From contig DAOQUL010000005.1 in NCBI GenBank assembly GCA_035341015.1, forward strand, positions 10,812 to 74,811: 64,000 bases of DNA, given 5' to 3'. The translations under genes were made by a program, and so were the position numbers. Below the pieces are notes generated by a model, which was not told the origin of the DNA, searched no databases, and saw only the letters and a program-made list of their open reading frames with translations. Source of the DNA: Anaerolineales bacterium. GTDB taxonomy: Bacteria > Chloroflexota > Anaerolineae > Anaerolineales > UBA4823. The number at the start of each line of letters is the position of its first letter. Position 1 is the first letter of the stretch. Below, piece by piece: positions 8,467 to 39,644 of the stretch.

Positions 8467-10743
8467 ATGACAGAACTTCAATCGTTGATCGCAAAAATGA
8501 CCCTGGAGGAAAAAGCTGCATTGTGTACCGGTGCCAGCGCATGGACGGCTACCCCGGTGGAGCGCCTGGGCATCCCAGAGCTGACCTGCTCGGATGGCCC
8601 GCACGGTGTGCGGCGCGTGCCAGATGTCAATTCCATCACTGTTGAGAGCCTGCCTGCCACCTGCTTCCCCACCGCTTCTTGCAGTGCTTCGACCTGGGAT
8701 CTGGACCTGGTTCAGAAGATGGGTGAGGCTTTGGCGGAGGAATGTATTGCCTTGAACGTGGATGTGGTGCTTGGTCCCGGGGCGAACATGAAACGTTCTC
8801 CCTTGGGAGGGCGCAACTTCGAATACTACTCAGAAGACCCTTACCTGGCGGGAGAAATGGCCGCCAGCCTGATCCGGGGTGTGCAAGGCAAGGGGGTGGG
8901 AACATCGCTGAAACATTATGCCGCCAACAACCAGGAATTCCAGCGCTTTACCATCAGCGCAGATGTGGATGAGCGCACCTTGCGCGAGATCTACCTGCCT
9001 GCCTTTGAAAAAGCGGTCAAAGAGGCTCGCCCCTGGACGGTGATGTGCTCGTATAACAAGGTCAATGGCACCTTCGCTTCAGAGCACCATTACCTTTTGA
9101 CCGACATCCTCAAAAAGGAATGGGGTTTTGAAGGCCTGGTGGTTTCGGACTGGGGTGCGGTGCGAGATCGCGTGGCGGCGTTGAAAGGTGGATTGGACTG
9201 GGAAATGCCCGGTCCTCAAGACCGGCACGTGCAGGCGGTGGTAGACGCGGTGCGATCTGGCGAGTTGGACGAAAGTGTGCTGGACGAAGCCGTGCGCCGC
9301 ATCTTGCGGATTGTGTTCAAGGCCAAAGAAACGCCCAAGGGCGGCAAGTTTGACGTGGATGCTCACCATGAGCTGGCGCGTAAGGTTGCGGCAGAAGGGA
9401 TGGTTCTGCTCAAGAACAACGGCCTCTTGCCGCTGAAGAACCAACAGCACATTGCCGTGATTGGGCGTTCAGCAGAGACGGCTCATTTCCAGGGCGGGGG
9501 CAGTTCGCACATCAACCCCACCAAAGTGGCTGTGCCGTTCAAGGAGTTGAAAGAGCGGGCCGTGGGTGCCGAGCTGAGCTATGCGGAAGGTTACCCTACT
9601 GATAATTCTTACCGCCCAGGGATGATCGACCAGGCGGTTGGGCTAGCGCGTTCGGCAGACGTGGCGGTGTTATACATCGCTTTGCCTTCTTTTAAAGAGT
9701 CTGAAGGTTATGACCGGAACGACCTGGACTTGACCGGACAGCAGGTGGCGCTGATCAAGGCAGTATCTAAAGTCCAACCCAATACGGTGGTGGTGCTGAA
9801 CAACGGTGCGCCGGTTGCGATGGGTGAGTGGATTGACGGCGTGGCTGCTGTGCTCGAAGGGTGGATGATGGGCCAGGCGGGGGGCGCGGCGATTGCAGAT
9901 GTGCTGTATGGCAAGGTCAATCCCAGCGGTAAGTTGGCTGAAACGTTCCCACATAAGCTGGCGGATACCCCTGCTCATCTCAATTGGCCAGGGGGCGCGG
10001 GCCAGGTGCGCTATGGGGAGGGGTTGTTCATTGGCTACCGGTACTATGATATGAAAGAAATCCCAGTCTTGTTCCCCTTTGGCCACGGGTTGAGTTACAC
10101 CACTTTTGCGTACAGCAACCCCAGGGTATCGGCCAAGACCTTCAAAGACATTGATGGGTTGACCGTGACGGTGGATGTGACGAACACCGGCGGTGTGGGC
10201 GGCAAAGAAATCGTCCAGGTCTACGTCCACGATCAAAAGTCTGGCCTGGTGCGGCCCGAGAAGGAATTGAAGGGCTTTGCAAAGGTGGCGCTTGAACCCG
10301 GCGAGACCAAATCCGTCTCTATCCCGCTGGATTTCCGCGCCTTTGCCTATTACCACCCCAAGTACAAGCAGTGGATCACCGAGGATGGCGAATTCGATAT
10401 CCTGATCGCGGCTTCAGCAGACGATATCCGCCAGGTGCTAACGGTCAATCTTGAATCAACCCTGAGCCTGCCCTGCATTCTCGACAAAGAATCTACGATC
10501 CGAGAATGGATGGATGATCGACGGGGCAAGGTGGTATTTGGGCCTTACTACGAGCAGATCCAAATCCAGAGCAGGCAAACCTTTGGCGGCGGCGAGGGCG
10601 AAGGTTCTATCGGCGTGGATGTCATGGAAATGATGAATGATATGCCATTGGTGAGCGTGCTCATGTTCATGGCGAGCGCGCTGCCGGTTCATCCAGAGGA
10701 TATGGTAGCCGGCCTGTTGAAGCAGGTGCACGGTATGGAGTGA
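8467..10743 (+). CDS. bglX: Glycoside hydrolase family 3 beta-glucosidase
   Basis: 758 aa. Contains PHGVR, GPGANMKRSPLGGRNFEYYSEDP, the nucleophile region GLVVSDWGA and a C-terminal fibronectin-like domain (KELKGFAKVALEPGE). Confidence 0.92.
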   Translation: MTELQSLIAKMTLEEKAALCTGASAWTATPVERLGIPELTCSDGPHGVRRVPDVNSITVESLPATCFPTASCSASTWDLDLVQKMGEALAEECIALNVDVVLGPGANMKRSPLGGRNFEYYSEDPYLAGEMAASLIRGVQGKGVGTSLKHYAANNQEFQRFTISADVDERTLREIYLPAFEKAVKEARPWTVMCSYNKVNGTFASEHHYLLTDILKKEWGFEGLVVSDWGAVRDRVAALKGGLDWEMPGPQDRHVQAVVDAVRSGELDESVLDEAVRRILRIVFKAKETPKGGKFDVDAHHELARKVAAEGMVLLKNNGLLPLKNQQHIAVIGRSAETAHFQGGGSSHINPTKVAVPFKELKERAVGAELSYAEGYPTDNSYRPGMIDQAVGLARSADVAVLYIALPSFKESEGYDRNDLDLTGQQVALIKAVSKVQPNTVVVLNNGAPVAMGEWIDGVAAVLEGWMMGQAGGAAIADVLYGKVNPSGKLAETFPHKLADTPAHLNWPGGAGQVRYGEGLFIGYRYYDMKEIPVLFPFGHGLSYTTFAYSNPRVSAKTFKDIDGLTVTVDVTNTGGVGGKEIVQVYVHDQKSGLVRPEKELKGFAKVALEPGETKSVSIPLDFRAFAYYHPKYKQWITEDGEFDILIAASADDIRQVLTVNLESTLSLPCILDKESTIREWMDDRRGKVVFGPYYEQIQIQSRQTFGGGEGEGSIGVDVMEMMNDMPLVSVLMFMASALPVHPEDMVAGLLKQVHGME

Positions 10744-16413: not shown

Positions 16414-19304
16414 GCTTCACCGTTTCGCGTGCTGTTCGTTTTCGGAACCGGCGGCGCAGCCGGGCGCAGCGCCAACCGTCTGGACGGTTTGGGCTGGGTT
16501 GCAGCACCCTGTTGAGCTTATCCCTGGCTTTGATCTTCCTGGCAGCCCTGGCGGGTTATACCACTTTGCTGCGTGACCTGCCCTCTTTGGATGAACTGCC
16601 GGTCTTGTTAGACCCCCCAGATGGCTTACTGCTCCAACCTACCCGTATATACGACCGCAGCGGCGAACACCTGATCCTGGAAATGGAGAACCCTGCTGTG
16701 GAAGAGCGCCGCTATTTGCTGGTCAGCGGCGAGAACCTGGGGGATGAGCCCGTGCAGCCTGAGGCGGTCATTGGGGCAACCCTGGCCAGCCTGGACCCTA
16801 CGTTTTGGGAAAATCCTGGTTACCGCCTGGAAGGCTGGAACACGGGTACGCACCCCACCCTGGCACAACGCCTGGTGATTGACATGCTGTTGTGGGATGA
16901 GCCGCCCTCGGTGCTGCGGAACCTGCGCGAGCGCCTGCTGGCGGCCCAATTGGTCAGCCGGTTTGGACGCGCCAGGGTGCTGGAATGGTACCTGAACAGC
17001 GCCTGCTACGGCGAGTGGATCTATGGGGTTGAGAACGCTGCCCAGGTATATTTTGGCAAATCTGCGGCGCATCTCACCCCGGCAGAGGCCGCCACCCTGG
17101 CGGCAGTGGCTGAAGCGCCCGATATCAACCCTTGGGCTGCGTCTGAGGTGGTGCGCCAACGCCAGAAGCAGATCTTGCAGACGATGATGCTGTCTGGCTG
17201 GCTGAGCGTGGATGAGGTGCTGGCGGCTGATGAAAAAGCCGTTACCTACCAGCCAGCCCAAGCGGCAGAAAACCTGGCGCCGGCTTTTGTGGAGCTGCTG
17301 CTGGCGCAGTTGCAGCCAGAAGCCCCAGAGCAGGTGATCCAGCGCGGCGGTTTGCGCATCGTGACCACGCTGGATTACGATTTGCAATTGCAGGTGACAT
17401 GTGCCACGGTGGCTCACCTGAGCCTGATAACAGGCCAGGGCACGGTCGATGAGACTGCCGGCGAAAGCGCGTGCGATGCGGCGCGTTTGCTGCCCACCTT
17501 GCAATTGGATGCCAACGCAGCGCAGCTTGATTTGAATGCCAGCGTGGTCGTTTATGACCCGCATACCGGGCAAGTGCTGGCATTGGCCAGTGACCCAGCG
17601 GACGAGGCGACGGCTCTGCGCTCACCCGGACGCCCGGCTGGGACTTTACTTTCTCCCTTTGTGTACCTGACTGGCTTCACGCGTGGGCTGAGCCCGGCCT
17701 CTTTGCTGTGGGATTTGCCACCCGAAGATGAGGCCGAACCCACCCCAGATGCAGATTACCATGGCCCGCTGCGCTTGCGGACTGCCCTGGCTAACGATTA
17801 CCTGCCGCCGGCCTTGCAAGTGTTAGAGCAGGTGGGGGTTGAGAATGCCTGGCGCACAGCCCGCCAGTTCGGCCTGGCTTCGCTGACGCGTCCGGCCCTG
17901 CAAACCGGCAGTGCGGCTTTCTTAGATGGGCCGGCGACCTTGTTGGAGAGCGCCCAGGCTTATGGCGTGTTGGCGTACCAGGGCCTGTTGGTGGGGCAGG
18001 CAGAACAGGCTGCGGGAGAGGATGGCGCGGCTTTGCAACCTCAACTGGCATTAAGGGTCGAAGATGCCAATGGCAGCCTGTGGCTGGGCTGGCCTGAGGC
18101 GCAGTCGCGGGCGATTGTGACCCCACAACTGGCTTATCTATTGACGCATGTGCTCAGCGATGAGACGGCCCGCTGGCCCAGCCTGGGGCATCCCAATGCG
18201 CTGGAGATTGGCCGTCCGGCAGGGGCCAAGCTGGGCCGCTCGTTGGACGGCATGGATGTTTGGACGGTGGGCTATACGCCCCAATTGGTGGTCAGTGTGT
18301 GGGTGGGCCGTTCGAGCAGCGTAGAGACTTCTGCCGGGCTGCGGCCGTTGGATCCAGAACTGGCAGCGGCCTTGTGGCATGCTGTGCTGCAATTTGCGCT
18401 GCGCGGCCAGCCGGCAGAAGCCTGGAAGGCCCCGGTGGGTGTGAGCCAGGTGATGGTGTGCGATCCATCCGGCTTGCTGCCCACCGCCGACTGCCCCAGC
18501 GTGGTCAGCGAGGTGTTTTTGACGGGCAGTGAACCTGTTCAGGCCGATTATCTCTACCAGCGCGTGCAGGTTAACCGTGAGACTGGCCGACTGGCAACCG
18601 TATTCACGCCGGCCGATTTGATTGAGGAACGCCTATACTTGCGCCTGCCGCCTCAAGCCTATGCTTGGGCAGCGCGGGCAGGGCTTGCGGTGCCGCCGGA
18701 TGATTATGATGTTTTGTATGAGCCGCCGCTGCTGGAGGGGGTGCGGATCAGCGCGCCTGAAATGTTTGCCCATGTGAGCGGAGAGGTTACTTTTCGCGGC
18801 ACGGCCAGCGGCGCTGATTTTGCGTATTACCGTTTGCAAGTGGGGCAGGGTCTGAATCCTCAAACCTGGACCCTGGTTGGAGAAGATGTGCACAAGCCTG
18901 TGAAAGATGGCATTTTGGGCACCTGGGATACAAGCGCCTTGAGTGGGCTATATGCTGTGCAACTGCTGGTTGTTGAAGGTAGCCAACGCGTGCAAACAGC
19001 CATCTTGCAGGTGACGGTGGACAACCAGGCTCCAGAAGTAACGATCCTATACCCGCAGGCTGGGGACTCGCTTGCATTTGGCGATGATGGGGATGGTGTG
19101 CTGCTGCAGGCCCAGGCCTCTGACGACCTGGAATTGGCCCAGGTGGTCTTTTATATTGATGAGAAACCCGTGGTAACGCTTTCTCAGCCGCCCTTTACCG
19201 TGTTGTGGGCGCCGAGCCTGGGTGAACATACGCTGCGTGTGGCGGCAACTGACCTGGCAGGCAATACCAGCCAGGAAGAAATTACCTTCACGATCCAGCG
19301 ATAA
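16410..19304 (+). CDS. Class A penicillin-binding-protein-like protein (GT51 plus transpeptidase folds, catalytic motifs degenerate) with C-terminal Ig-like domains
   Basis: 964 aa; the ATG overlaps the recN stop (ATGA). N-terminal TM helix. The GT51 region is recognisable (RNLRERLLAAQL...LEWYLNSACYGEWIYGVENAAQVYFGKSAAHLTPAEAATLAAV). Expected catalytic motifs read SLDPTFW (not ED), TLLS (not SxxK) and KLG (not KTG). Confidence 0.75.
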   Translation: MSFTVSRAVRFRNRRRSRAQRQPSGRFGLGCSTLLSLSLALIFLAALAGYTTLLRDLPSLDELPVLLDPPDGLLLQPTRIYDRSGEHLILEMENPAVEERRYLLVSGENLGDEPVQPEAVIGATLASLDPTFWENPGYRLEGWNTGTHPTLAQRLVIDMLLWDEPPSVLRNLRERLLAAQLVSRFGRARVLEWYLNSACYGEWIYGVENAAQVYFGKSAAHLTPAEAATLAAVAEAPDINPWAASEVVRQRQKQILQTMMLSGWLSVDEVLAADEKAVTYQPAQAAENLAPAFVELLLAQLQPEAPEQVIQRGGLRIVTTLDYDLQLQVTCATVAHLSLITGQGTVDETAGESACDAARLLPTLQLDANAAQLDLNASVVVYDPHTGQVLALASDPADEATALRSPGRPAGTLLSPFVYLTGFTRGLSPASLLWDLPPEDEAEPTPDADYHGPLRLRTALANDYLPPALQVLEQVGVENAWRTARQFGLASLTRPALQTGSAAFLDGPATLLESAQAYGVLAYQGLLVGQAEQAAGEDGAALQPQLALRVEDANGSLWLGWPEAQSRAIVTPQLAYLLTHVLSDETARWPSLGHPNALEIGRPAGAKLGRSLDGMDVWTVGYTPQLVVSVWVGRSSSVETSAGLRPLDPELAAALWHAVLQFALRGQPAEAWKAPVGVSQVMVCDPSGLLPTADCPSVVSEVFLTGSEPVQADYLYQRVQVNRETGRLATVFTPADLIEERLYLRLPPQAYAWAARAGLAVPPDDYDVLYEPPLLEGVRISAPEMFAHVSGEVTFRGTASGADFAYYRLQVGQGLNPQTWTLVGEDVHKPVKDGILGTWDTSALSGLYAVQLLVVEGSQRVQTAILQVTVDNQAPEVTILYPQAGDSLAFGDDGDGVLLQAQASDDLELAQVVFYIDEKPVVTLSQPPFTVLWAPSLGEHTLRVAATDLAGNTSQEEITFTIQR

Positions 19305-19338
19305 AAAATCTGCGGGCCACCAGGCCCGCAGATTTTTT
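19303..19338. terminator. Bidirectional intrinsic terminator between convergent genes
   Basis: AAAAAATCTGCGGGCC-acca-GGCCCGCAGATTTTTT, with A/T runs on both sides. Confidence 0.85.
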
Positions 19339-19353
19339 ATATCACCAGTGTGT

Positions 19354-21367: not shown

Positions 21368-22455
21368 GCCCGGCTTCCGCGCCGCAAAAGGAAGGCTGCC
21401 AGGCCAGTCACGACTGCCAGTGCACCCAGGACGATCTCAATTGTGAGCAGTGTGCCTGAGCGGCCAGTTGAAACTAGCGCGTCCCCTTCTCTTTCAGGTT
21501 GGGAGGTGGGCTGGTTTTCGATGGCGGTGGCTGGCTCTCCATCATCGGTGTCAACGGTGGGGGTTGGGGGGGGCGAGGTAGCGGTGGATTCGGGGGTGGC
21601 CGTATCCAAAAGGATAGCCAGGGCGGCGGCTTCGGCCGTCTCAGTAAAGGTGGGCATGGCCACGGTTGGGGTAAGTATGGTGGGGGTGGCTGTCGCTTCG
21701 GGGGTCATGGTGGGCGTGGCCGTGGCGGGCAGGGCGCGCGAAGTGGTGGCATCTTGGGTGGCGGCAATGGTGGGGGTAATTGGCTCTATGGGAAGGCTGG
21801 CAGAGATGCCAACGATGTCAACCGGGGCAGGTGAGGGCTCTACTGGTAACTCGATCGGTTCGTTAATGACCTCAGTGGGCACGATTTTTGCGCTTGGCTC
21901 TTCGCTGGGCAGGGCGCCACCCATTGCCAGGTTATCTGCCTCAGAGGCGGTGGGTAGTATCTGGGCGAAGGCAACGTCTGCCGTTTCTGTGACCAGCATT
22001 GTTTCTGCCACCACAGCAGCTTCTTGGGCCATTCCGGCATCGTTGACAGCGGCCTCTGGTTGAGGCGCCTCGAGCGCCACGGGCTGAGCATGCTCTGGCA
22101 TTGCATACTGTACAGCGCGGGGGGCTAACCCCAAGAAATCTCCCAACATCACCAATACCAAAAGCAAACTACTGACGGCTGATGCCAGGCTGAAAGCAGG
22201 GAAAAGCGGCCTGGGCTTAGGCTGCCGGGTGGTGACCATCTGCGGCGTCAAGACAAAACTGCGCGGGCGGCGCGGCCGGGGCAGGCTGCGCAGCAGTGAG
22301 CGGGTCTTTTGCAGGTCATCCAGGGTGGTCTGTAAGGCGGGGGTGGTGATCAGGCGCGCTTCCAGGCGGGCACGTTCTTTGCTGTTTAGCTGCCCGTCCA
22401 GGTAGGCTGAAAGTACTTCATAGTCGCGCGCGGATAATTGGGTTTTGATCATCAC
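21364..22455 (-). CDS. Anti-sigma factor (single-pass membrane, Thr/Pro/Ala-rich extracytoplasmic region)
   Basis: 363 aa; its start overlaps the sigma factor stop (GTGA). LSAYLDGQLNSKERARLEARL is the typical anti-sigma N-terminal helix. TM helix near residue 100. Confidence 0.8.
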   Translation of the reverse strand: MMIKTQLSARDYEVLSAYLDGQLNSKERARLEARLITTPALQTTLDDLQKTRSLLRSLPRPRRPRSFVLTPQMVTTRQPKPRPLFPAFSLASAVSSLLLVLVMLGDFLGLAPRAVQYAMPEHAQPVALEAPQPEAAVNDAGMAQEAAVVAETMLVTETADVAFAQILPTASEADNLAMGGALPSEEPSAKIVPTEVINEPIELPVEPSPAPVDIVGISASLPIEPITPTIAATQDATTSRALPATATPTMTPEATATPTILTPTVAMPTFTETAEAAALAILLDTATPESTATSPPPTPTVDTDDGEPATAIENQPTSQPEREGDALVSTGRSGTLLTIEIVLGALAVVTGLAAFLLRRGSRA

Positions 22456-23063
22456 ATCTCTCGGTTCTCATCATCATGACGAAATACCGCAGGTAAAAGT
22501 TCCCAGAAGCCTTTCAGGCAGTCGCGCATGCGCAGGCGGGCGCGCGCCAGCCTGCTCTTGACCGTGCCTAACGGTTTGCCCAAGGCCTGGGCGGCTTCGG
22601 TGTAATCCATGCCCTGGATATCTACCATTAATACGGCGGCGCGGAAGTCATCCGGAAGATGTTGCAGGCAGTGTTCAATCGCCTGGCGCAGTTCGCTGCG
22701 GTCCAGGGATTCTTCTGGCGAATCTTGCGGATCGACCATCCAGCGCGGGGATTCGATCTCTTCACCGCTGTCATCCAATGGCTCAAGGGGGGTGGTGGGC
22801 CGGCGTTGGCGCCTGCGCAGCTCATCATAGCAGGCATTGGTCACAATGCGCAGCAGCCAGGCGCGGAAAGAACCGCCGCGGTACGAGCGGATATGGTGAA
22901 AAGCCGAGATAAAGGCCTCTTGAGACGCGTCAGCAGCCGCGGCCTCATCCCCCATCATGCGATAGGCCTGGTGATACACCTGGTCTTGGTAGACTAAAAC
23001 CAGGTGATTGAATGAATCCAGATCACCCTGGCAGGCGGCCTGGATCAGAGCGGGCTCGTCCAT
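22452..23063 (-). CDS. ECF RNA polymerase sigma factor
   Basis: 203 aa. Region 2 (FNHLVLVYQDQVYHQAYRMMGDEAAAADASQEAFISAF...WLLRIVTNACYDELRRR) and region 4 (MDYTEAAQALGKPLGTVKSRLARAR). Confidence 0.93.
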   Translation of the reverse strand: MDEPALIQAACQGDLDSFNHLVLVYQDQVYHQAYRMMGDEAAAADASQEAFISAFHHIRSYRGGSFRAWLLRIVTNACYDELRRRQRRPTTPLEPLDDSGEEIESPRWMVDPQDSPEESLDRSELRQAIEHCLQHLPDDFRAAVLMVDIQGMDYTEAAQALGKPLGTVKSRLARARLRMRDCLKGFWELLPAVFRHDDENREM

Positions 23064-25043: not shown

Positions 25044-25087
25044 AAAGCGCTTGGGGCGGTCCATATTGGCACCGCCCCAAGCGCTTT
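25044..25087. terminator. Bidirectional terminator between convergent genes
   Basis: AAAGCGCTTGGGGCGGT-ccatattggc-ACCGCCCCAAGCGCTTT forms a 17-bp stem followed by TTT. Confidence 0.8.
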
Positions 25088-25110: not shown

Positions 25111-27435
25111 TTACTTCTGCTGCAGCTTAGCCAACATCTGTTGATAATCGGCAGGGTTGGCAGGGTTAAGGGCCAGGATGGCCATGACGGTTTCGGCGGC
25201 TGCGGCGCGATTGCCAGATTGTAAGAATAGATTGATCGCAGCGTCAAGCTGCTCGATCGCGTCATCGGTGCGCCCCACCTGGCGGTAGAATTCTCCCAGG
25301 CGGCGGTGCATGGCAGGCTGCTTGGGATTCTCTTGTACCAGGGTGGTCAAAAATTCCAGCGCCTTCGGATTTTGCCCGCTGTTCAGCAGATGGGCAATGT
25401 AGTTATCGACCTCAGCCAGGGCCTGGGCAGTTTGCCCAAGGCGCAAATTGAGATCAATCAACATGCCGCGGGCCTTGGCGTCATCTGGCTCGAGGGTGCG
25501 CACCTGGTCAAAGACGCGCAATGCCTGGCGCCAATCGAGGCTTTGCATGTCGATATCTGCCATGCGGTGCAGCAGGTTGACCTTGGTGGCGCGGTCTACA
25601 TTGGCCTGTTGGGCATAGCGTAGGGCGCGGGTATAGGTTTTGCGGGCCATGCTTAAATCGGCCTGGCTGTAGTACACCTCAGCCAGCTTCAGGAATTCGC
25701 GCACCGTCTCTTCAACCTGGCCGCGCTCCATCATCAAGTCGATCAAGTGATTGCGGGGCTCCATATCCATGGGGGCCAGCTCGCTGACGCGCTTCAGCAG
25801 TGCAATCGCGCGGTTGGCTTCGCCGCGCACACTGTAGCTTTCAGCTACTACGGTGTATTTGTGCACGGCCTCGGCGATGTGGTTATCTTGCAAGAGCAGG
25901 TCGCCAATGCATATGTGCAGGGGCAGGTAGGTAGGGGCAAACTTCAATGCGTAGTAGGCCTCTTCCATGGCGGTGCGAAGGTGACCCTTGCGGGCCAGGT
26001 TATTGACCTTGGAGAGGGATTCAACCACCTGGCTGCTGCTGGCCTCGGTGAGCATTTCGGCCAATGGGATGGGCGGGGTGCCTTCTGACTGGGCGGGGAG
26101 CTGCTGTCGGGCGCGCTTGATGTGCGTGCGCCAGTCGGCACGGACAAGCATGGCGTTGATGTTGTCGCAAATGCGGAGCTGGAATTGAGGATCATCCTTC
26201 TGACCAAAGGCTTCGATGATCGGTTCGTAGAGTTGGCTTAATTCTTCGGCATACTCGGCTGAGACATTCTCAGAGTCGGCAATTTTGAGGGCTTCGAGAT
26301 ACTCGATGGCGGCCTCTTTGTTGCGTTCCATCTTGCGGTAGGTTTGGCCGAGCAGCAGGCGGGCGCCCAGCGCAAAGCTGGTGTGTTTGACGGCTCGCTG
26401 CAGGTTGCGCACGGCGCTTTCCATGCGCTCGCCTTTGGCCAGCAGCATGCCCAGGTTGAAATGGGCTGCCGGGCTTTCGATCAGGCCGGCTTCCATAGCG
26501 CGCTCCAGTTCGTTGATGGCATCGGCATCTTTGCCGTGCGACTGTAGATCGATGGCCTGGCTGATGTGCAGGGTCATCTTCGTATAGTCAATGTGCTGTC
26601 CAAGGATGGCAGTGCCTTTGACGATCGAGGTCAGCCCTCTGGCCTGTTGTTGGGCGGGCTGGGTTTCAGCCGATTGCTCAAAGAGCATACCGGCCAGGGC
26701 GGTCAGGGCTGCCTGGCGGGCCTCTTGGATTGGATCAATGCTGGCGCGTTCTCTGGCATCCGTCTTGGTTGTGTCGAGCTGTTTGACCTGGGCCATGGTG
26801 AGGGGGCCGGTCGAGCCGCGCGGGCGGCGCGGCTTGGGCAGCGGCTTGCCGGTCTGGATCATAGACAGGGCCTGTGTGGCCTCGTTGCTGTCGGGATATA
26901 CTTGCAGCAAGTGGTTGATGGTCTGGACGGCTTTTTGTACCTCGCCGCTGTGCTGCATCAGGCTGGCGACAGCCACGTATTCCATGATCGCCTGTTGTTT
27001 ACGGTTCAGGCGTTCGTAAACCAGGGCCAGGCGCGAGTGCGCCACCACATTTTCGGGATTAAGGCTTACCACGCTGGTCCAGTTTTCGATCGCCTTTTCG
27101 ATATCCTTGTTGCGGGCATACTTTTCAGCGACTTCCAGATAGGTCTTGCAAGCCTGATCCACGTTGCCGGTGCGTTCTAACAATTCGGCGACTTTTTCGT
27201 GTGGCAGGGGGTCATTGGGAGAAACGTTGGCGGCGCGCTGGTAGGTTTTTAGTGCATTATCAAAGTCTTGCACTTCATAGAGCGCCAAAGCCAGGTTGGT
27301 GAGGGCTTTCGGCTCATCCGGAAACTCTGCCAGTGCCTGGCGGTAATAGCCGGCTGCTTTGTCCCAGGCCTGGTCCCAGGCGGCTGAATGGCCCTGGTTC
27401 ATTGCTTGTTGAAAGCGTTCTTGATTTCCTGCCAT
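25111..27435 (-). CDS. Tetratricopeptide (TPR) repeat protein
   Basis: 774 aa, all helical, with many W/A-Y-G-A-Y-A-P style 34-aa repeats (e.g. AAGYYRQALAEFPDEPKALTNLALALY). GGAG upstream. Starts 9 nt after polA. Confidence 0.85.
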   Translation of the reverse strand: MAGNQERFQQAMNQGHSAAWDQAWDKAAGYYRQALAEFPDEPKALTNLALALYEVQDFDNALKTYQRAANVSPNDPLPHEKVAELLERTGNVDQACKTYLEVAEKYARNKDIEKAIENWTSVVSLNPENVVAHSRLALVYERLNRKQQAIMEYVAVASLMQHSGEVQKAVQTINHLLQVYPDSNEATQALSMIQTGKPLPKPRRPRGSTGPLTMAQVKQLDTTKTDARERASIDPIQEARQAALTALAGMLFEQSAETQPAQQQARGLTSIVKGTAILGQHIDYTKMTLHISQAIDLQSHGKDADAINELERAMEAGLIESPAAHFNLGMLLAKGERMESAVRNLQRAVKHTSFALGARLLLGQTYRKMERNKEAAIEYLEALKIADSENVSAEYAEELSQLYEPIIEAFGQKDDPQFQLRICDNINAMLVRADWRTHIKRARQQLPAQSEGTPPIPLAEMLTEASSSQVVESLSKVNNLARKGHLRTAMEEAYYALKFAPTYLPLHICIGDLLLQDNHIAEAVHKYTVVAESYSVRGEANRAIALLKRVSELAPMDMEPRNHLIDLMMERGQVEETVREFLKLAEVYYSQADLSMARKTYTRALRYAQQANVDRATKVNLLHRMADIDMQSLDWRQALRVFDQVRTLEPDDAKARGMLIDLNLRLGQTAQALAEVDNYIAHLLNSGQNPKALEFLTTLVQENPKQPAMHRRLGEFYRQVGRTDDAIEQLDAAINLFLQSGNRAAAAETVMAILALNPANPADYQQMLAKLQQK

Positions 27436-27444
27436 ACGATCTCC

Positions 27445-30261
27445 CTAAAGTTCCAGTGGCATCAACTCACCCCAATTCTGCCCACTGCGGGTTTCGGCAC
27501 GCAGCGGGGCCTTGAGTGAGTAGGCTTTTTCCATTACAGTGCGCACCAACTCGGCGGTTGGGCGTAACTGGTCTGAAGGACATTCTAACACTAATTCATC
27601 ATGAACTTGAAGTAAAATCCGCGCCGACAGGCCGGCTTCTTTCAGCGCTGGCGGCAGATGCAGCATGGCGATCTTCATAATATCCGCCGCGGTACCCTGG
27701 ATGGGTGCATTGATGGCTTCGCGTTCTTCGCGATTGCGGATGGCCTGGTTTTGCTGAGTTTTTAAGCCTGGGAAGAGCCGCCGCCGCCCCAAGAGCGTCT
27801 CAACATAGCCCTGTTGGGCAGCCAAGAGGCGAATGCCATCCAGGTAGCTTTTGATGCCGGGGAACTGCTTGAAATAGGCATCGATGAAATCTTCTGCTTC
27901 TGCCAGGGTCAGCTCGCTGCTGCGGGTCAGGCCGAAGGCGCTCATCCCGTAGATCAGGCCAAAGTTGACCGCTTTGGCATGCCGGCGCTGGGTTTTATTG
28001 ACCTGCTCGAGTGGAATGCCGAAAATGGCGGCGGCCGTGGCGGCGTGGATATCTTGCCCAAGGCGGAAGGCGTTGAGCATGGCCTGGTCATCGGCCATAT
28101 GGGCGGCAATGCGCAGCTCTACTTGTGAGTAATCGACCGAGAGCAATTGCCAACCCGGTGCGGCAACGAAGGCGCGCCGCACCTGCCTGCCTAGGTCGGT
28201 GCGAATGGGGATGTTTTGGAGATTGGGATCAGACGAGGCAATGCGCCCGGTGACCGAGCCGGTCTGATTATAAGATGTATGCACGCGCCCGGTATTGGGG
28301 TTCACCTGCAAGGGCAGTGCATCCAGGTAGGTGGATTTAAGCTTCGAGAGCTCGCGCTGCTCTAAGACCAGGTCTACCACCGGGTGTTTGCCGCTCAGCG
28401 CTTCAAGCACGTCAGCCGAGGTGGAATAGTGCCCCCGCTCGGTACGGCGGGTACGATCGGGCGGAGAAAGCTTCAGGCGCTCAAAGAGAGCTTGTGAGAG
28501 TTGTTGGGTAGAATTGATGTTGAATGGTTGGCCGACCAGCTCGTACACCTGGGTCTCGATTTCTGCCAGGCGGGTGGCCAACTCGGCCGACATTTGGGCC
28601 AGGAAGCTTGTATCCAGGCTGATGCCGGTCATTTCCATATCGGCCAGTACGCTGACCAGGGGCATCTCGATCTCTTCGAGCAGGCGCAGCCCGGGCCCGG
28701 CTTCTAACTCGGCGCGCAAGTGGGGGATCAACTGCATCACAGCCGCGGCATCGGCGGCGGCGTAGGCGGCCGCGTCGACAACGGGCACTTCGGCCATGCT
28801 GCGCTGGTTCTTCCCTGAACCAATCAATGCCTGGATCTCGGTCATCGAGAGATTCAGGCGCACCCAGGCCAGGTTCTTTAGGCCCAGGTTGTGCGAGGCC
28901 GGGTTGGTCAGCCATTCGGCGATCATGGTGTCAAACGATAGGGGGGCAGTGCGCAATCCCTGGCGGGCGAGCATAATGAAATCGTACTTCAGGTTGTGGC
29001 CGGCCTTCTGGATACGCGGGTCAGTCAATGGGCCGCGCAGGGCCTCCAGAACGTCTTTCAGGGGTAACTGCTTGCCCATGCCGGGGTTGTGCCCCACGGG
29101 GATGTAATACCCCTGGCTGCCTTCCACCGCCAGCGAGATGCCCACCAGGTCGGCCCGCATGGGATCGGTGGAGGTGGTTTCGGTGTCAAAGGCGATCAGG
29201 CTGGCTTTTTGCAAGCGCTCGGCCAGGCTCTTTAGGGCCGCGGGCGTATCGATTACCTGGTAATCGATTGGGCCTGGGGCGGCAGACAGGGCAGGGGCGG
29301 GGGCTTCTGCGGGGGGCGGCGCGGCGGTCTCGAACAGCGAGAGTTGTTGGCCTTTGTGCGCGGGTTGGGCTTTGCCATATAACGGGTAGAGATCGGTCAG
29401 CTTTTTGAGCAAAGTGCGAAATTCAAGCTCGCGGAAGATGGCTTCTACTTGTTCCGGGTCGAAATGCTCGGTGCGGGCTTTGTCCAGGTCCATCTTGAGC
29501 GGCAGGTCGGTGACAATGGTGGCCAAGCGCCGGCTGAGATCGGCGTTGGCGCGCCCGGCTTCTAGCTTCTTGCGCACCCCATCGGCCAGCTCATCCAGGT
29601 GGGCATAAATGCCTTCTAGGGTTTCGTACTTTGCCAACAGGTTGACGGCAGTTTTCTCACCAATGCCTGTCACACCGGGGATGTTATCAGATGTGTCGCC
29701 CACCAGGGCTTTATAGTCGATCACCTGGTCGGGGCGTACGCCCAGGTACTCCAACACGTCTTGGGCAAAATAATCCTTTGATTCAGCGCCGCCTTTGCCA
29801 GGCAGGTTAACCAGGATACGTTCGTTGACCAATTGCAAGAGGTCACGATCGCCGGTGATGATCTTGACCCCGTAGCCTTGTGCTGAGAGCTGGCAGGCCA
29901 GGCTGCCGAGCACATCATCAGCCTCGTAACCTTCCAGCTCCAGGCGAGGAATGTTGAAAGCATCCACAAGCTGGCGGATGCGCTTCATCTGCGGGCGTAA
30001 ATCATCGGGCATCTTGGCGCGGGTGGCTTTGTATTCGGGGAACATTTCGTCGCGAAACGTTTTGCCTGTGTCAAAGGTAACAGCCAGGTAATCGGGCCGG
30101 TCTTGTTCTAAAATGCGCAGCAAGATGCTGGTGAAGCCATACACACCGGCAGTCGGTTCTCCGGCATGGGTGGTGAAGGCCGCGGGTGAACCGCGTGTCA
30201 GGGCGTAGTAAGCGCGATAAGCTAGTGCGTGACCGTCAAGCAGATATATGGTGGGAGGCAT
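27445..30261 (-). CDS. polA: DNA polymerase I (5'-3' exo, 3'-5' exo and polymerase domains)
   Basis: 938 aa. Contains LLDGHALAYRAYYA, FDTETTS (ExoI), RRHAKAVNFGLIYG (motif B) and LQVHDELVLE (motif C). Confidence 0.97.
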   Translation of the reverse strand: MPPTIYLLDGHALAYRAYYALTRGSPAAFTTHAGEPTAGVYGFTSILLRILEQDRPDYLAVTFDTGKTFRDEMFPEYKATRAKMPDDLRPQMKRIRQLVDAFNIPRLELEGYEADDVLGSLACQLSAQGYGVKIITGDRDLLQLVNERILVNLPGKGGAESKDYFAQDVLEYLGVRPDQVIDYKALVGDTSDNIPGVTGIGEKTAVNLLAKYETLEGIYAHLDELADGVRKKLEAGRANADLSRRLATIVTDLPLKMDLDKARTEHFDPEQVEAIFRELEFRTLLKKLTDLYPLYGKAQPAHKGQQLSLFETAAPPPAEAPAPALSAAPGPIDYQVIDTPAALKSLAERLQKASLIAFDTETTSTDPMRADLVGISLAVEGSQGYYIPVGHNPGMGKQLPLKDVLEALRGPLTDPRIQKAGHNLKYDFIMLARQGLRTAPLSFDTMIAEWLTNPASHNLGLKNLAWVRLNLSMTEIQALIGSGKNQRSMAEVPVVDAAAYAAADAAAVMQLIPHLRAELEAGPGLRLLEEIEMPLVSVLADMEMTGISLDTSFLAQMSAELATRLAEIETQVYELVGQPFNINSTQQLSQALFERLKLSPPDRTRRTERGHYSTSADVLEALSGKHPVVDLVLEQRELSKLKSTYLDALPLQVNPNTGRVHTSYNQTGSVTGRIASSDPNLQNIPIRTDLGRQVRRAFVAAPGWQLLSVDYSQVELRIAAHMADDQAMLNAFRLGQDIHAATAAAIFGIPLEQVNKTQRRHAKAVNFGLIYGMSAFGLTRSSELTLAEAEDFIDAYFKQFPGIKSYLDGIRLLAAQQGYVETLLGRRRLFPGLKTQQNQAIRNREEREAINAPIQGTAADIMKIAMLHLPPALKEAGLSARILLQVHDELVLECPSDQLRPTAELVRTVMEKAYSLKAPLRAETRSGQNWGELMPLEL

Positions 30262-30267
30262 TGCGAT

Positions 30268-31863
30268 TTAAAGGCGAGGCAGGTCTGGTGGCCGAGAGGC
30301 ACCCTGGTGGTGGCGGGTCTGTTGGATGAACTCGCGGATCACATGTGCGGGAGGCGGCTGGGGGCTGCTCATGATCAGGTAACCCGGGGCCCAAAAGTCA
30401 CCGGAGGGGTTCTCGCGACCGAGGTTTGGGAAGTCAGCAAAGATGCGCTGTGAAGTTTGTTGGCGCAAGACGCGCATCAGGTAGCTGGGAGACGTGGTTG
30501 GTGCCACGCCAGCCACCCATTCAATATAGTCAGGACGTACGGCGATGTGATCCAATCGCCAACCATAAGCCAGGCAAAGCTGGGGGATCCATTCGCCCAG
30601 GCGGGCGCCCAGGTCACCCGTCAGGTAATGTTGGGGCAGGCGAGGGATCAGCACACAGGCGTAAACCAGGTTGTGCAGCCCAGGCGAGATGGGGCGCAGT
30701 TCAAGGCTCTCGTCTTGGGCTTCGACAGGCGCCGGCGAGGCGGCTGGCTGGGGTTGGGGCAGGGCTGAGGCAGGCAGCATATCGACTGCAACCTGGTTTT
30801 TGGGGGGGAGGGCTGGTGCTGGGGCAATGACCGGCGCGGCGGCTTCGGTGCTGGGAAATATCTTGGCCTGGGCACTGACCTGCGGGCTGGCAGATAATTG
30901 GATATTAAGATCTGGGCGCGGGCGGCTGATAGGCTCTTGAACCCGCCTGGAGGGGGAGGGCGGCGGAACATCTTCCAATAGCGGCTTGATGTTGGGCGGC
31001 GGTGGAAGCTGTGAAAGCGGGATGGCCAAATCGGGGCGAGGCTGGACGGGGTGCGCGCCGGGCGGTGAAGCCAGGGCGCGTGCCAATTGGCTGGCTTGGG
31101 TGCGGATCTTGCTGAAGGGGGTTTCGGCATTAAAGGCCAGCGCCAACACCATACCCTTGCCCAAGGCGGTGGCATACAACATGTATTCGGCGGCAGTGAT
31201 ATCCAGGCGCACCAGGCGCACCATATCTCCTGAGGGGCCACCCGGCCGCGAAGCGGCATCGTTGGCCCAGAAGCTGGTCACCACAGCGGCCATTTCTTGG
31301 GCGGCAGGCTGGGCTAACTGCCCGGCGTAGGCCCACAACTGACCGTCGCGTACGATCAGGGCGGCTTGGGCAGATGATTCTAATGAAAGGCGAGTGAGGT
31401 GCTGGGCGGCGCGGCTGACATCTTGCAGCCAATCCAACCCTTGTGTGTGGTTGAGCGGCGCAAATTGGGGCGGCGTTTGAGTCTCTGCACTTGAGCCCTG
31501 GTGCAAGGCCTCAGAAACGGTATCAAGCAGGTCGGGCAGGTAAAATGGCTTTGTGAGGAAGCCGTGCACGCCAGCCTGTACCAACTCAGGGTCTGAGGGG
31601 TCGTTATTGGGTGGAATGACCACCAGGTGAATTGCAGGGGATATCTTTTTGAACTCAGAGATCAGTTGGGGCAGGGTAACATCGGGTAAAAAACTATCCA
31701 GGATGGCTAAGGAAAAAGGCATGCTCTGCATGCAGTCAAGCGCTTCACTGCCGCTATCTATCAGCAGCACCTTATACAGCCCGGTTTCTTCGAGTGTTTG
31801 CTGGATCAACTCCCCAAAGCCGGGTGTTGCACTGGCAACCAGAACGGAAATCACCTCAGCCAT
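30268..31863 (-). CDS. Fusion protein: receiver-like domain, Roadblock/LC7-like region, Pro-rich linker and an IS200/IS605 TnpA (Y1)-like domain lacking the HUH histidines
   Basis: 531 aa. N-terminus VLVASATPG...AILDSFLPD...LTKPF (the receiver acidic pair is missing). Middle AALIVRDGQLWAYAG...MVLALAF. C-terminus LVYACVLIPRLPQHYLTG...HIAVRPDYIEWVAGVAPTTSPSYLMRVLRQQTSQRIF...DFWAPGYLIMS aligns to TnpA_IS200, with DHVHLL replaced by DYIEWV. Confidence 0.7.
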   Translation of the reverse strand: MAEVISVLVASATPGFGELIQQTLEETGLYKVLLIDSGSEALDCMQSMPFSLAILDSFLPDVTLPQLISEFKKISPAIHLVVIPPNNDPSDPELVQAGVHGFLTKPFYLPDLLDTVSEALHQGSSAETQTPPQFAPLNHTQGLDWLQDVSRAAQHLTRLSLESSAQAALIVRDGQLWAYAGQLAQPAAQEMAAVVTSFWANDAASRPGGPSGDMVRLVRLDITAAEYMLYATALGKGMVLALAFNAETPFSKIRTQASQLARALASPPGAHPVQPRPDLAIPLSQLPPPPNIKPLLEDVPPPSPSRRVQEPISRPRPDLNIQLSASPQVSAQAKIFPSTEAAAPVIAPAPALPPKNQVAVDMLPASALPQPQPAASPAPVEAQDESLELRPISPGLHNLVYACVLIPRLPQHYLTGDLGARLGEWIPQLCLAYGWRLDHIAVRPDYIEWVAGVAPTTSPSYLMRVLRQQTSQRIFADFPNLGRENPSGDFWAPGYLIMSSPQPPPAHVIREFIQQTRHHQGASRPPDLPRL

Positions 31864-31923
31864 GCTTAGAGTTTATCATGGGCTGGCCCTCCTCGCAAGT
31901 CACAAAACTGAAACCCGACAACA

Positions 31924-31952
31924 TTGACAAGCTTGGGTGAACATGATATCTT
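31924..31952 (+). promoter_or_regulatory. Sigma-70-like promoter (TTGACA-N17-TATCTT) giving a leaderless or near-leaderless transcript
   Basis: TTGACA at 31924-31929 and TATCTT at 31947-31952. The ATG at 31961 is 8 nt downstream with no SD. Confidence 0.4.
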
Positions 31953-33824: not shown

Positions 33825-34940
33825 CTATGGGGCTGGGAGAACGAACCAGGGGTTGATGAAACCTCCCATGAAGCGTACTTCATAATGGAGGTGGGGGCCG
33901 GTGGAATTGCCTGTACTGCCCATCCCACCGATATAGGTGCCGGTGTAAACGCTTTGCCCACAGGCCGCGCTGACCGAGCTGAGGTGGGCATAGAGGGTCT
34001 GGTAGCCAGTGCCGTGGTCGATCATCACCATGTAGCCGTAGCCATTCAGGGCCCAACCTGCAAAGACCACCACACCAGCATCGGAGGCAAAGATCCCATC
34101 GCCGGTGCTGCCAGCAATGTCAATCCCCAGGTGACCAGACCAGTAATCATTGCCAGAGAGAACATGGCTGGCTGTGGGCCAGGCAAATGCTCCTGAGCCA
34201 TAGGCGCCATCGTAACTGCCGGTGCAAGCACCAGGCCCAAGCACTGATGCGTTGACACCTGAATTATCGCGGGCGATGGTGGGCACGATCCACTGCTGGA
34301 ACTCGCGTTCGCCATCTGGAATCATGATCCACTGCCCGGCTTCGAACTTGGGGTTTGTCAGATCGACTTGGTTGCCGGGCCAGCTTAAGATATCTTCGGC
34401 CTCAGCCTTGAATTGTGTGGCAATGGCCTCAACCGTATCGCCCTCTTGCCATTGGTAATAAACCCCGTTTACGGGTGGGATGTTCAATTCCATGCCCAGG
34501 CTGAGCATGTCTGGATCGTCGTTCAATTGATCGTAATTAGCCCACAACACGGTCTCTGGGTCGATGCCGTAAGCCGATGCAATGCCAAAAATCGAATCGC
34601 CACTGCTGACCACGTACGATACAGCTTGTTGGCGTGGCCGGGTGGGAATGATCGTATGGAGAGCGGCTTGCCTGGCAATGGCCCGCGTGGCAGGGCGCCC
34701 GGGCAAGGCCGGAAGCCCTACATCCTCAGCCAGGGGGTTGGGCGTGAGCGTTGGTTGGATGGTTGATGCTGTATCGGATGGTTCTATGGCCGCGGCGGCC
34801 TGGTTGGTGCGTGAGCGCCAACCCAGGTAGACGGCCAGCAGGACCAGGGTGGCGGCAATTACCCAGGCGCCCGCGGTAAGAACGCGATCTGAACGGCGGG
34901 GAGCCGCCGGAGGTGTTACAGCAGAAACTTGCTCGTCCAT
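33825..34940 (-). CDS. LysM-domain M23 family metallopeptidase
   Basis: 371 aa with a TM anchor. Two LysM repeats (YVVSSGDSIFGIASAYGI; YQWQEGDTVEAIATQF). M23 motifs HLGIDIAG and GSTGNSTGPHLHYEV. Confidence 0.93.
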   Translation of the reverse strand: MDEQVSAVTPPAAPRRSDRVLTAGAWVIAATLVLLAVYLGWRSRTNQAAAAIEPSDTASTIQPTLTPNPLAEDVGLPALPGRPATRAIARQAALHTIIPTRPRQQAVSYVVSSGDSIFGIASAYGIDPETVLWANYDQLNDDPDMLSLGMELNIPPVNGVYYQWQEGDTVEAIATQFKAEAEDILSWPGNQVDLTNPKFEAGQWIMIPDGEREFQQWIVPTIARDNSGVNASVLGPGACTGSYDGAYGSGAFAWPTASHVLSGNDYWSGHLGIDIAGSTGDGIFASDAGVVVFAGWALNGYGYMVMIDHGTGYQTLYAHLSSVSAACGQSVYTGTYIGGMGSTGNSTGPHLHYEVRFMGGFINPWFVLPAP

Positions 34941-34945
34941 GATAA

Positions 34946-36226
34946 CTAGTTGGAGTCCTCGTGCAGGGTCTCTAAGAAGCGCTGGTTATCTTCTGTGCGC
35001 GAGAGACGCTGCAAGATCGCCTCGGTGGCGGTGGATGGGTCCAGACCTGCACCATAGGGCGGAGAGGCGATCATCTGGTCATACATACGGCGCATGAGCC
35101 ACACACGCGGCGTGATGTCGGGGCCGAGCAAAAGCTCTTCGCGGCGGGTAGATGAACGCTCAATATCGATAGCCGGGAAGACGCGCCGTTCTTGAAGGCG
35201 GCGTGAGAGGTGAAGCTCCATATTGCCGGTGCCCTTGAACTCTTCGTATACAACATCATCCATGCGTGAGCCAGTATCCACCAGGCAGGTGGCGATGATG
35301 GTGAGCGAACCGCCCTCTTCAATGTTACGGGCAGCGCCGAAAAAGCGCTTGGGCGGGTAGAGTGCAGAGGGGTCAATACCGCCGGAGAGGGTGCGGCCAG
35401 AGGGGTTGACCACCAGGTTATAGGCACGTGCCAGGCGGGTGATCGAGTCCATCAGGATCACCACGTGGCGGCCGGTTTCGGTCAGGCGCTTGGCGCGCTC
35501 CAGGGCCATCTCGGCCACGCGAACGTGCGAGGTAACCGGCTCATCAAATGTAGAGGAGATCACTTCGGCGTCCACCGAGCGATCCATATCCGTCACTTCT
35601 TCAGGACGCTCGCCGATCAACGCTACCATCAGGTATACATCGGGATGGTTGGTGGAGATGGCGTTTGCAAGCTGTTTCAAGATGGTGGTCTTACCAGCCT
35701 TGGGGGGAGATACGATCAGGCCGCGCTGGCCGCGCCCGATGGGGGTGACCAGGTTAATGAGACGCGTCGCCAGGGTATGGCGGTCAGTCTCTAAGTTGAA
35801 GCGCATATCTGGGAAGATGGGGGTCAGTGTTTCGAAGGTGGGCCGGTACTTGGCCTCTTCAGGGTCGACACCGTTAATGGATTCAACTTTAAGCAAGCCG
35901 TAATGCTTTTCAGATTCGCGCGGCGGGCGCACGTGACCGATCACCAGGTCACCATCGCGCAGGCTGTAGCGGCGGATCTGCGATTGCGAGACATAAACGT
36001 CGTATGCGCCAGGCTGGTAATGGCCTGACCGCAAGAAGCCGATGCCATCGCTCATGATTTCGAGGATGCCGCCGCGCAATTCGATGCCTTCTTTCTCGGC
36101 CTCTGACTGCTGGATGCGCAGGATCAGGTCATCCTTTTTTAAACGGTTTGCGCCAGAAATGTCTAATTCCCTGGCCATCTGACGCAAGGTAGCCAAGGGG
36201 GCACTTTGTAGTTCAATAACTTTCAT
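34946..36226 (-). CDS. rho: Transcription termination factor Rho
   Basis: 426 aa. N-terminal [22 protein letters not shown], the RNA-binding CSD-like domain, Walker A PPKAGKTT and FDEP.... Confidence 0.97.
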
Positions 36227-36426: not shown

Positions 36427-36472
36427 AAAAACGATGGTAGAGCGCTGTTGGGTGAGCGCTCTACCATCGTTT
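36427..36472 (-). terminator. Intrinsic terminator after the OsmC-family gene
   Basis: AAAACGATGGTAGAGCGCT-gttgggtg-AGCGCTCTACCATCGTTTT forms a 19-bp stem 4 nt past the stop, with a U-run on the minus strand. Confidence 0.85.
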
Positions 36473-36476
36473 TGGA

Positions 36477-39612: not shown

Positions 39613-39644
39613 AAAAAAAACGGCGCCGCCAGCGCCGTTTTTTT
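39613..39644. terminator. Bidirectional terminator between convergent genes
   Basis: AAAAAAAACGGCGC-cgcca-GCGCCGTTTTTTT. It overlaps the TAA of the amidohydrolase gene. Confidence 0.85.

Follow-up and report, generated by a model that had tools for sequence, protein, structure and literature searches.

The DNA considered here, referred to as the window, is a stretch of 64,000 nucleotides (nt) from an Anaerolineales bacterium of the phylum Chloroflexota (contig DAOQUL010000005.1 of assembly GCA_035341015.1), and the subject of this analysis is a gene on its minus strand that encodes a protein of 531 amino acids (aa). From N- to C-terminus this protein consists of a receiver domain, a Roadblock/LC7 domain, a variable linker rich in proline and glutamate, and a domain with the fold of TnpA, the transposase of the IS200/IS605 family of insertion sequences (IS). 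The open reading frame (ORF), and its fusion of three modules, had been proposed in an earlier sequence-only reading of the same DNA; the ORF is found at 30268-31863 and its domains are supported by profiles and structural models. The gene stands next to the promoter as the first of three cistrons, ahead of polA and a gene for a TPR-repeat protein. It is inherited vertically, occupies one locus and belongs to the housekeeping genes of the Anaerolineae; it is not a mobile element. We have high confidence in the anatomy and synteny of the gene, and hold the function proposed for its product far more tentatively. The genes, and the parts of the first of them, are listed here with the evidence for each.

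30268..31863, minus strand: gene for the 531-aa protein with receiver, Roadblock, linker and predicted inactive TnpA domain (ORF list, Pfam, NCBIfam, alignments)
27445..30261, minus strand: polA, DNA polymerase I (Pol I), 938 aa, second gene (NCBIfam PRK05755, 1091 bits against a cutoff of 720)
25111..27435, minus strand: TPR-repeat protein, 774 aa, third gene (ORF and profile scans)
31504..31863, minus strand: degenerate receiver (REC) domain, aa 1-120 (Pfam, NtrC1 alignment, residue counts)
31066..31443, minus strand: Roadblock/LC7 (MglB-like) domain, aa 141-266 (AlphaFold 2, Foldseek, profile comparison, conservation)
30688..31065, minus strand: variable acidic Pro/Glu-rich linker, aa 267-392 (family alignment, composition)
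30952..30981, minus strand: linker motif LLEDVPPPSP, aa 295-304, consensus Φ-Φ-x-D-V-P-P-P-x-P (family counts)
30298..30681, minus strand: IS200/IS605 TnpA (Y1/HUH) fold, predicted catalytically inactive, aa 395-522 (Pfam, NCBIfam, AlphaFold 2, Foldseek)
30520..30528, minus strand: HUH-equivalent triplet Y446-I447-E448, both His replaced (profile alignment, family counts)
30316..30330, minus strand: C-terminal helix stretch FIQQT, with F512 in place of the nucleophile Tyr and T516 in place of the Gln ligand (alignment, counts)

The TnpA-like domain

The claim that the C-terminus has a Y1-transposase fold was checked by profile and structure searches, all of which agree with it. The Pfam profile PF01797 (Y1_Tnp) matches residues 397-515 with 51.9-55.6 bits against a cutoff of 23, and the NCBIfam profile transpos_IS200 (NF033573) gives the whole protein 55.0 bits, which equals its cutoff of 55, and the domain alone 58.5 bits. 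In a profile comparison with the Protein Data Bank (PDB) the TnpA structure 2ec2 was matched at E 2.8e-14. AlphaFold 2 models were built for single domains (residues 136-272 and 388-531) and compared with the PDB by Foldseek; that of residues 388-531 has a predicted local distance difference test score (pLDDT) of 90.1, and the first 29 of its matches are without exception IS200/IS605 TnpA proteins, at E 1e-8 to 4e-6. Fold and secondary-structure order are the same as in the TnpA proteins of ISHp608 (2a6m/2vhg), ISDra2 (2xm3/2xma) and Sulfolobus (2ec2/2f4f), the alignment runs end to end, template modelling (TM) scores are about 0.68-0.71, and the C-terminal helix that bears the tyrosine in those enzymes is retained.

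The domain is judged from these alignments to have lost all four catalytic residues. In the comparison of profiles the family reads 'rpdYlQwiv' where the PDB family reads 'mPDHiHLfv', and 'keFiqqT' where it reads 'kkYIeeQ'. Both histidines of the HUH motif are thus replaced in the window protein, as the sequence-only reading had noted. That reading had also regarded the tyrosine region as retained, which stands for the helix and fails for the nucleophile itself; Phe512 occupies its position and Thr516 that of the glutamine ligand, and F512 shares its column with the phenylalanine of the engineered ISDra2 mutant Y132F (2xo6), where the wild type (2xm3) has tyrosine. The picture is the same throughout the family, for which we counted residues in 190 non-identical members. 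The first HUH position is Y in 160 and H in 21, the third is Q in 132, E in 22, H in 12 and L in 12, the nucleophile position is F in 141 and Y in 49, and the Gln-ligand position is T in 165 and I in 17. An H-x-H motif occurs in only five members, each with phenylalanine at the nucleophile position, so that H-x-H and tyrosine are never combined and the complete catalytic set is found in none of the 190. Because tyrosine and glutamine are lost as well as the histidines, and family-wide, the reading of this domain as a domesticated, catalytically dead fold is firmer than when it was first put forward. The PDB also holds an entry, 2fyx (DR_0177, a 'putative transposase' of Deinococcus), with the sequence PDYVHLL, in which the same His-to-Tyr change has occurred at the first HUH position and the second histidine and the tyrosine are kept.

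The loss of these residues has not been accompanied by a loss of conservation elsewhere in the domain. Block conservation is 0.68-0.83, among the highest in the protein, and residues P407, R408, W435, R467, S471, N485-P486, F490-W491-A492, G494, R517 and Q520 are invariant, the last two coming after the FIQQT stretch on the C-terminal helix. The family-specific invariant motifs ENPSGDFWAPGY and FIQQTRxxQG set it apart from IS200/IS605 TnpA, as do the Y-I-E, F and T found in place of HUH, Tyr and Gln, the fusion of the domain behind about 390 aa of other modules, and the occurrence of the family as single-copy, syntenic genes without subterminal hairpins or tnpB.

In public NCBI and JGI annotation the members of the family go under 'transposase', 'IS200/IS605 family transposase', 'response regulator' or 'RayT/CheY-like', and the transposase and RayT labels, together with the passing of the Pfam cutoff and the bare attainment of the NCBIfam one, are what speaks for a true IS200/IS605 or RAYT-type transposase, active or decaying, that has become fused by chance to a response regulator. 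We regard this as very improbable. Besides the missing chemistry, the RAYT structure 4er8 lies far behind in the Foldseek comparison of the C-terminal model (E 5.5e-3, as against 1e-8 for IS200 TnpA). The RAYT/TnpA-REP proteins are likewise host-retained, single-copy descendants of the Y1 fold, and the JGI label 'RayT' arises via COG1943, but RAYTs keep HUH and Tyr, are catalytically active and stand beside REP/BIME repeats, whereas the window family is without the catalytic residues and the window has no REP-like hairpin family. The genomic evidence against a mobile element is taken up below.

The receiver, Roadblock domain and linker

At the N-terminus, the Pfam profile PF00072 (Response_reg) matches residues 8-116 with 43.3 bits (cutoff 30.2), and the receiver of NtrC1 (1zy2) aligns with residues 7-122 at E 2.2e-7. 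In the latter alignment the acidic pair corresponds to A12 and T13 and the Thr/Ser switch to P84, and the phospho-acceptor D56 and the conserved K105 are present, a condition resembling that of other pseudo- or atypical receivers, which share the CheY-like fold, with the residues of phospho-chemistry partly missing in the window lineage. T13 and P84 are the state of the window's own sub-lineage. Across the family D56 is found in 188 of 190 members and K105 in 180, and in 43 (about 23%) D13 and S84 accompany them to give a plausible phosphorylatable site. The family probably descends from a true response regulator, of which the window protein is a derivative with a pseudo-receiver, the Mg2+/phosphoryl chemistry having been lost in its lineage. 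The sequence-only reading was therefore right about the pseudo-receiver of the window protein itself, and does not extend to the family; because D56 and K105 are nearly invariant and about a quarter of the members keep D13 and S84, the receivers are in transition and not uniformly pseudo-receivers.

These observations bring in the possibility that the protein is a response-regulator-type transcription factor, in which the inactive TnpA fold would serve as a new DNA-binding output through which the protein would regulate either its own operon with polA and the TPR gene or a dispersed regulon. A receiver followed by an output is the standard response-regulator layout, the set D13/D56/S84/K105 survives in the 43 relatives just mentioned, the gene heads its operon, and the C-terminal domain is the sole basic part of the protein (median isoelectric point 8.8, against 4.4-5.5 for the other parts, receiver and Roadblock being acidic). 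Against this, a disordered linker of about 130 aa and an extra Roadblock domain would be unusual for a transcription factor, and no histidine kinase adjoins the gene, either in the window or at the annotated loci of its relatives, save for an unrelated GAF-HATPase gene some 10 kb off in one of them (L084). Orphan response regulators are common, so that this absence does not settle the matter. The DNA upstream of the gene, discussed below, also speaks against this view, which we think unlikely overall.

The middle segment had been assigned to Roadblock/LC7 on its sequence pattern, and the assignment proves right at the level of fold, with a sequence signal that is weak by itself. The Pfam profile Robl_LC7 stays below its threshold (12.7 bits, cutoff 23, E 0.11), and in a comparison of a 28-sequence profile of this region with the PDB the eight best matches are all MglB, at E 0.011-0.11. 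The AlphaFold 2 model of residues 136-272 (pLDDT 80.5, predicted TM score 0.72) has the order a-bb-a-bbb-a and draws 111 Foldseek matches from the PDB at E<=1e-3. The 50 of these that were listed are of Roadblock/longin type with probability 1.0 and include MglB, Streptomyces Roadblock/LC7, MP1-p14/Ragulator/LAMTOR, EGOC and Gtr1p-Gtr2p; the leading ones (MglB, Roadblock, MP1-p14, LAMTOR) have E 2e-7 to 1e-5 and TM scores of 0.60-0.66. The model thus points to a genuine Roadblock/LC7 fold, shared at about 20-25% identity with MglB (6izw, 6hjm, 3t1s), the Streptomyces protein (3kye) and MP1-p14/LAMTOR. Conservation per 20-aa block is 0.43-0.79, with its minimum in the variable-loop block 201-220, and by this measure the Roadblock domain ranks with the TnpA-like domain among the best-conserved parts of the protein. 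Roadblock domains usually dimerise and act as platforms or GTPase-activating proteins for small GTPases. Unlike MglB, the domain described here falls below the Pfam threshold, is flanked by receiver and linker, and has no gene for a small GTPase found in its vicinity. Fusion of a receiver to a Roadblock-related output is known from thaumarchaeal response regulators (NitrOD3, PMC5847659), a family unrelated to the present one.

The linker is 80-198 aa long in the aligned family and exceeds 300 aa in some members; it contains 16% Pro and 10.5% Glu, with a median net charge of -12, and the part of the gene that encodes it has a raised GC content of 0.62-0.64, GC content being otherwise unremarkable. 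Long members (659-776 aa) were considered as candidates for extra domains or a fusion to polA, which was ruled out, their linkers alone being longer. Within this variable sequence the motif at residues 295-304 stands out, P300 being present in 181 of 190 members, P304 in 177 and D298 in 143, with the full pattern matched in 140; its form is the usual one for short docking motifs, and it may be a docking site for a partner.

The Roadblock domain and the linker are at the centre of a further alternative, that of a scaffold or polarity/cell-organisation factor comparable to RomR together with MglB, in which the TnpA fold would be a dimerisation or interaction module alone and the link to polA the result of historical hitch-hiking. 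The fold nearest to MglB, the long acidic Pro-rich linker with its one conserved docking motif, the large TPR protein as a possible partner and the filamentous habit generally known for Anaerolineae are all in keeping with it. RomR of Myxococcus (receiver, Pro-rich linker, acidic tail) likewise has a receiver followed by a long disordered Pro-rich region, although the C-terminal module of the window protein is unrelated to anything in RomR. A tblastn search for an MglA-type GTPase, made with an approximate MglA query and hence a lead at most, found no match in the window or in 86 loci (about 10 kb around each, 1.42 Mb in all). This lead counts against the scaffold idea, as does the behaviour of the gene order described in the next section, and we find the idea doubtful.

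Genomic context, transcription and selection

A word-indexed protein search returned more than 2,700 matches, among which there are probably many ordinary receivers and IS200 transposases. Nearly all of the best 120 are full-length, at about 490-620 aa; PF01797 is present in every one of the 120 except P0004, PF00072 in about half as well, and full-length alignments show 40-70% identity. When one genome per GTDB species was scanned, a single-protein query gave nothing and an alignment query gave relatives in at least 493 genomes, of which the best 80 are essentially all metagenome-assembled genomes (MAGs) of Anaerolineae/Chloroflexota. An exhaustive hidden Markov model search with the Roadblock profile of the family yielded 785 clusters (50% identity) at E<=1e-10, in which the domain nearly always lies at residues ~135-290 of a ~500-600-aa protein. 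No cultured or named hosts turned up in these searches, the sources being MAGs and metagenomes alone. Two apparent natural truncations were set aside, the 434-aa P0004 as a truncated gene call and L017 as a run of N inside the gene; L017 (gap at 10400-10560) is the closest species-level relative, at 84-94% protein identity over the neighbourhood, and its short match reflects this assembly gap and not a linker deletion. Typical Anaerolineae-type gene-polA loci were also seen on a 3-kb contig binned as Syntrophothermus, Firmicutes (L055), and on one labelled Candidatus Aquidulcis, Limnocylindria (L008), both of them probably mis-binned or mislabelled contigs, and MAG H6_556 holds two different copies of the gene (L012, L025), each followed by polA, which points either to a bin of mixed strains or to duplication of the entire unit.

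Synteny with polA in related genomes, suggested earlier as a check, was assessed in the best 80 of the 493 species loci. In 78 of them polA lies directly downstream on the same strand, with a median gap of about 71 nt, and the TPR gene follows polA, at a median gap of about 52 nt, in every locus long enough to show it. One exception (L043) is a contig that ends 250 nt past the gene. The other, the sole clear departure from this order, is represented by two independent contigs (L006, identical to L082, 10001-14589) and has a gene for a 936-aa NPCBM-domain protein and then relA downstream in place of polA and the TPR gene. The upstream side varies beyond close relatives, with glutamate synthase for example in L084, and since the polA/TPR side is fixed, the conserved unit is exactly that of the gene, polA and the TPR gene. 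This order survives at about 40% protein identity while the surroundings change, which argues for selection on the linkage and hence weakens the hitch-hiking part of the scaffold alternative. In the wider neighbourhood, genes for rho, a LysM-M23 peptidase, a HAD hydrolase and an ECF-type sigma factor (34946-36226, 33825-34940 and 22452-23063, all on the minus strand) remain syntenic down to about 45% identity (L081, L085), and the window therefore belongs to a stable core part of the chromosome, that of an Anaerolineaceae organism from sludge, digesters and manure.

The sequence-only reading had placed the three genes, from 25111 to 31863, in one operon, an idea now strengthened by a conserved promoter, a terminator hairpin and RNA contigs across both junctions. 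The polA start lies 6 nt after the stop of the 531-aa gene and the start of the TPR gene 9 nt after the polA stop, the 9-nt gap containing GGAG, and neither gap holds a terminator. The protein encoded by the third gene reaches no equivalog cutoff and is generic. Contigs from a sludge metatranscriptome span the junctions at 30111-30308 (gene/polA) and 27297-27505 (polA/TPR). The signals at the two ends of the unit are these.

31870..31898, minus strand: operon promoter with -35 TTGCGA, a 17-nt spacer to TAAACT (14 nt to TG) and extended -10 TGATAAACT (upstream comparison)
25044..25087, no strand assigned: perfect 17-bp hairpin with a 10-nt loop, between convergent genes and 3' of the TPR stop (hairpin scan)

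In the window TGATAAACT is followed by 6 nt and the ATG. Upstream regions of 79 related loci were compared after anchoring at the start codon, and in 63 of them an element CTTGCC-17-(C)GTGATA(C/A)ACT lies 5-11 nt (mostly 6-10) before it, the TTG of the -35 being conserved at 98-100%. Because this promoter sits so close to the start codon, the operon mRNA would be leaderless or nearly so, and predictions for some Chloroflexi genomes include leaderless genes that have a TAtaaT signal (PMC3160421). The same promoter form recurs at other window genes, including the divergent neighbour, and is therefore a generic strong promoter and not an operator. An operon-specific DNA element for the inactive domain was accordingly rejected, the upstream conservation being generic promoter alone and the hairpins of the window all different. 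For the transcription-factor view this is adverse evidence, as no operator-like palindrome or hairpin was found in the conserved upstream DNA. The 25044-25087 hairpin is likely to be a bidirectional terminator closing the operon.

The divergent neighbour is an unrelated 554-aa ORF on the plus strand, called from GTG 31937, whose promoter TTGACA-17-TGATATCTT at 31924-31952 lies inside that call; its real start is more likely GTG 31958 or ATG 31961 (MNKPARF...), which would make it nearly leaderless too. Neither Pfam nor NCBIfam matches the encoded protein, which is conserved in the closest relatives alone. Other perfect hairpins of the window lie at 36428-36473 (19 bp), about 200 nt upstream of the rho start, and at 19301-19340 (18 bp) and 39614-39644 (13 bp), the last two just past gene ends with T-runs and probably intrinsic terminators; their sequences are all different.

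The possibility of an assembly chimera, raised at the outset, is excluded by three metagenomes assembled independently (activated sludge 2016, anaerobic digester 2021, wastewater 2025), in each of which one contig covers 29800-32300 without a single difference, and by hundreds of full-length homologues. Comparison with a divergent strain from a manure metagenome, in which 33 differing sites within the gene were listed, gave the following distribution of single-nucleotide polymorphisms (SNPs).

Receiver: 7 synonymous, 0 nonsynonymous
Receiver-Roadblock interdomain stretch: 1 synonymous
Roadblock: 5 synonymous, 2 nonsynonymous (both in the variable loop)
Linker: 8 synonymous, 7 nonsynonymous
TnpA-like domain: 3 synonymous, 0 nonsynonymous

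The three folded domains together have 15 synonymous and 2 nonsynonymous SNPs, a pattern that, with the conservation described above, indicates purifying selection on the inactive TnpA domain and not decay. The gene also lacks the surroundings of a mobile element. The absence of IS ends, tnpB and flanking hairpins, remarked on in the sequence-only reading, was confirmed, inverted repeats flanking the gene being absent too; no REP-like repeated hairpin family is present in the 64-kb window and no Rfam RNA family matches it. Among plasmid records there is no full-length copy, and none holds more than one third of the protein in one place, so the protein is not carried on plasmids as a unit. A link to defence systems was considered and dropped, PADLOC having given nothing beyond a generic TPR match. 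The database label 'transposase' was likewise rejected as a statement of function, on the lost catalysis, the missing IS features, the purifying selection and the fixed syntenic position in at least 78 species.

Proposed function and its significance

Dimers of IS200/IS605 TnpA bind hairpins in single-stranded DNA (ssDNA), and the elements that encode them exploit the ssDNA of the lagging strand and of repair, which is also the substrate of Pol I. The reading that we prefer, with a probability of roughly 0.4, is that the 531-aa protein is a non-catalytic partner of Pol I that binds ssDNA or hairpins or acts as a scaffold. Under this proposal the inactive TnpA domain would keep the ancestral dimerisation and grip on single-stranded or hairpin DNA without cutting it, and this grip would target the protein to the lagging-strand template or to repair gaps. 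The receiver and Roadblock domains, which are typical dimerising switch and platform modules, would determine which state the protein adopts; phosphorylation would do this in the ~23% of relatives whose site is intact, and contacts with other proteins would do it in the window protein. The linker motif would serve to bind a partner, for which the co-encoded TPR protein or Pol I is the likeliest candidate. This is the most economical model because it fits not only the fold and the purifying selection but also the basic charge and the identity of the operon partner; a DNA- or ssDNA-binding output is itself inferred from the fold, the mildly basic domain and the selection on it.

Several points weigh against this proposal. 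The net charge of the TnpA-like domain is only about +2, and neither the hairpin scan of the window nor the comparison of upstream regions found a conserved hairpin or operator near the operon. The RNA contigs that cross the gene junctions are assembled and of low depth, with carry-over of DNA possible, the locus L082 has the gene without polA, and conserved gene order is in any case no proof of physical or functional coupling. The Roadblock domain, for its part, suggests a GTPase-linked role unrelated to DNA. A stronger form of the proposal, in which a captured HUH transposase stripped of its catalysis and given a signalling front end has become a dedicated ssDNA/hairpin-recognition accessory of Pol I across a bacterial class, we consider improbable as a whole.

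We classify the finding as a domesticated transposase-derived domain used as an atypical response-regulator output. The sequence-only reading had not recognised this architecture as described, and the literature searched yielded no account of a protein with receiver, Roadblock and Y1 domains, nor of a catalytically dead TnpA domain. Domesticated transposases are already known, and the bacterial HUH/Y1 examples, the RAYTs, keep their chemistry; the family described here is a class-wide and strongly constrained case in which the fold has been kept and the chemistry discarded, with two signalling or platform modules added, in an operon with Pol I. Hundreds of database entries named 'IS200/IS605 family transposase' belong to it and inflate the counts of mobile elements in Anaerolineae MAGs. 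What they stand for is apparently a transposase that the host has turned to housekeeping use, probably one related to DNA. To our knowledge there is almost no replication genetics in Chloroflexota. If the inactive domain still reads ssDNA hairpins, it would represent a new non-catalytic nucleic-acid-binding module and a new output domain for two-component-type proteins, and might reveal an unrecognised accessory factor for the processing of Okazaki fragments or the repair of gaps in this phylum. Should the role as a Pol I accessory prove true, the family would provide the first catalytically dead HUH domain recruited to core replication or repair, and with it a new type of response-regulator output.

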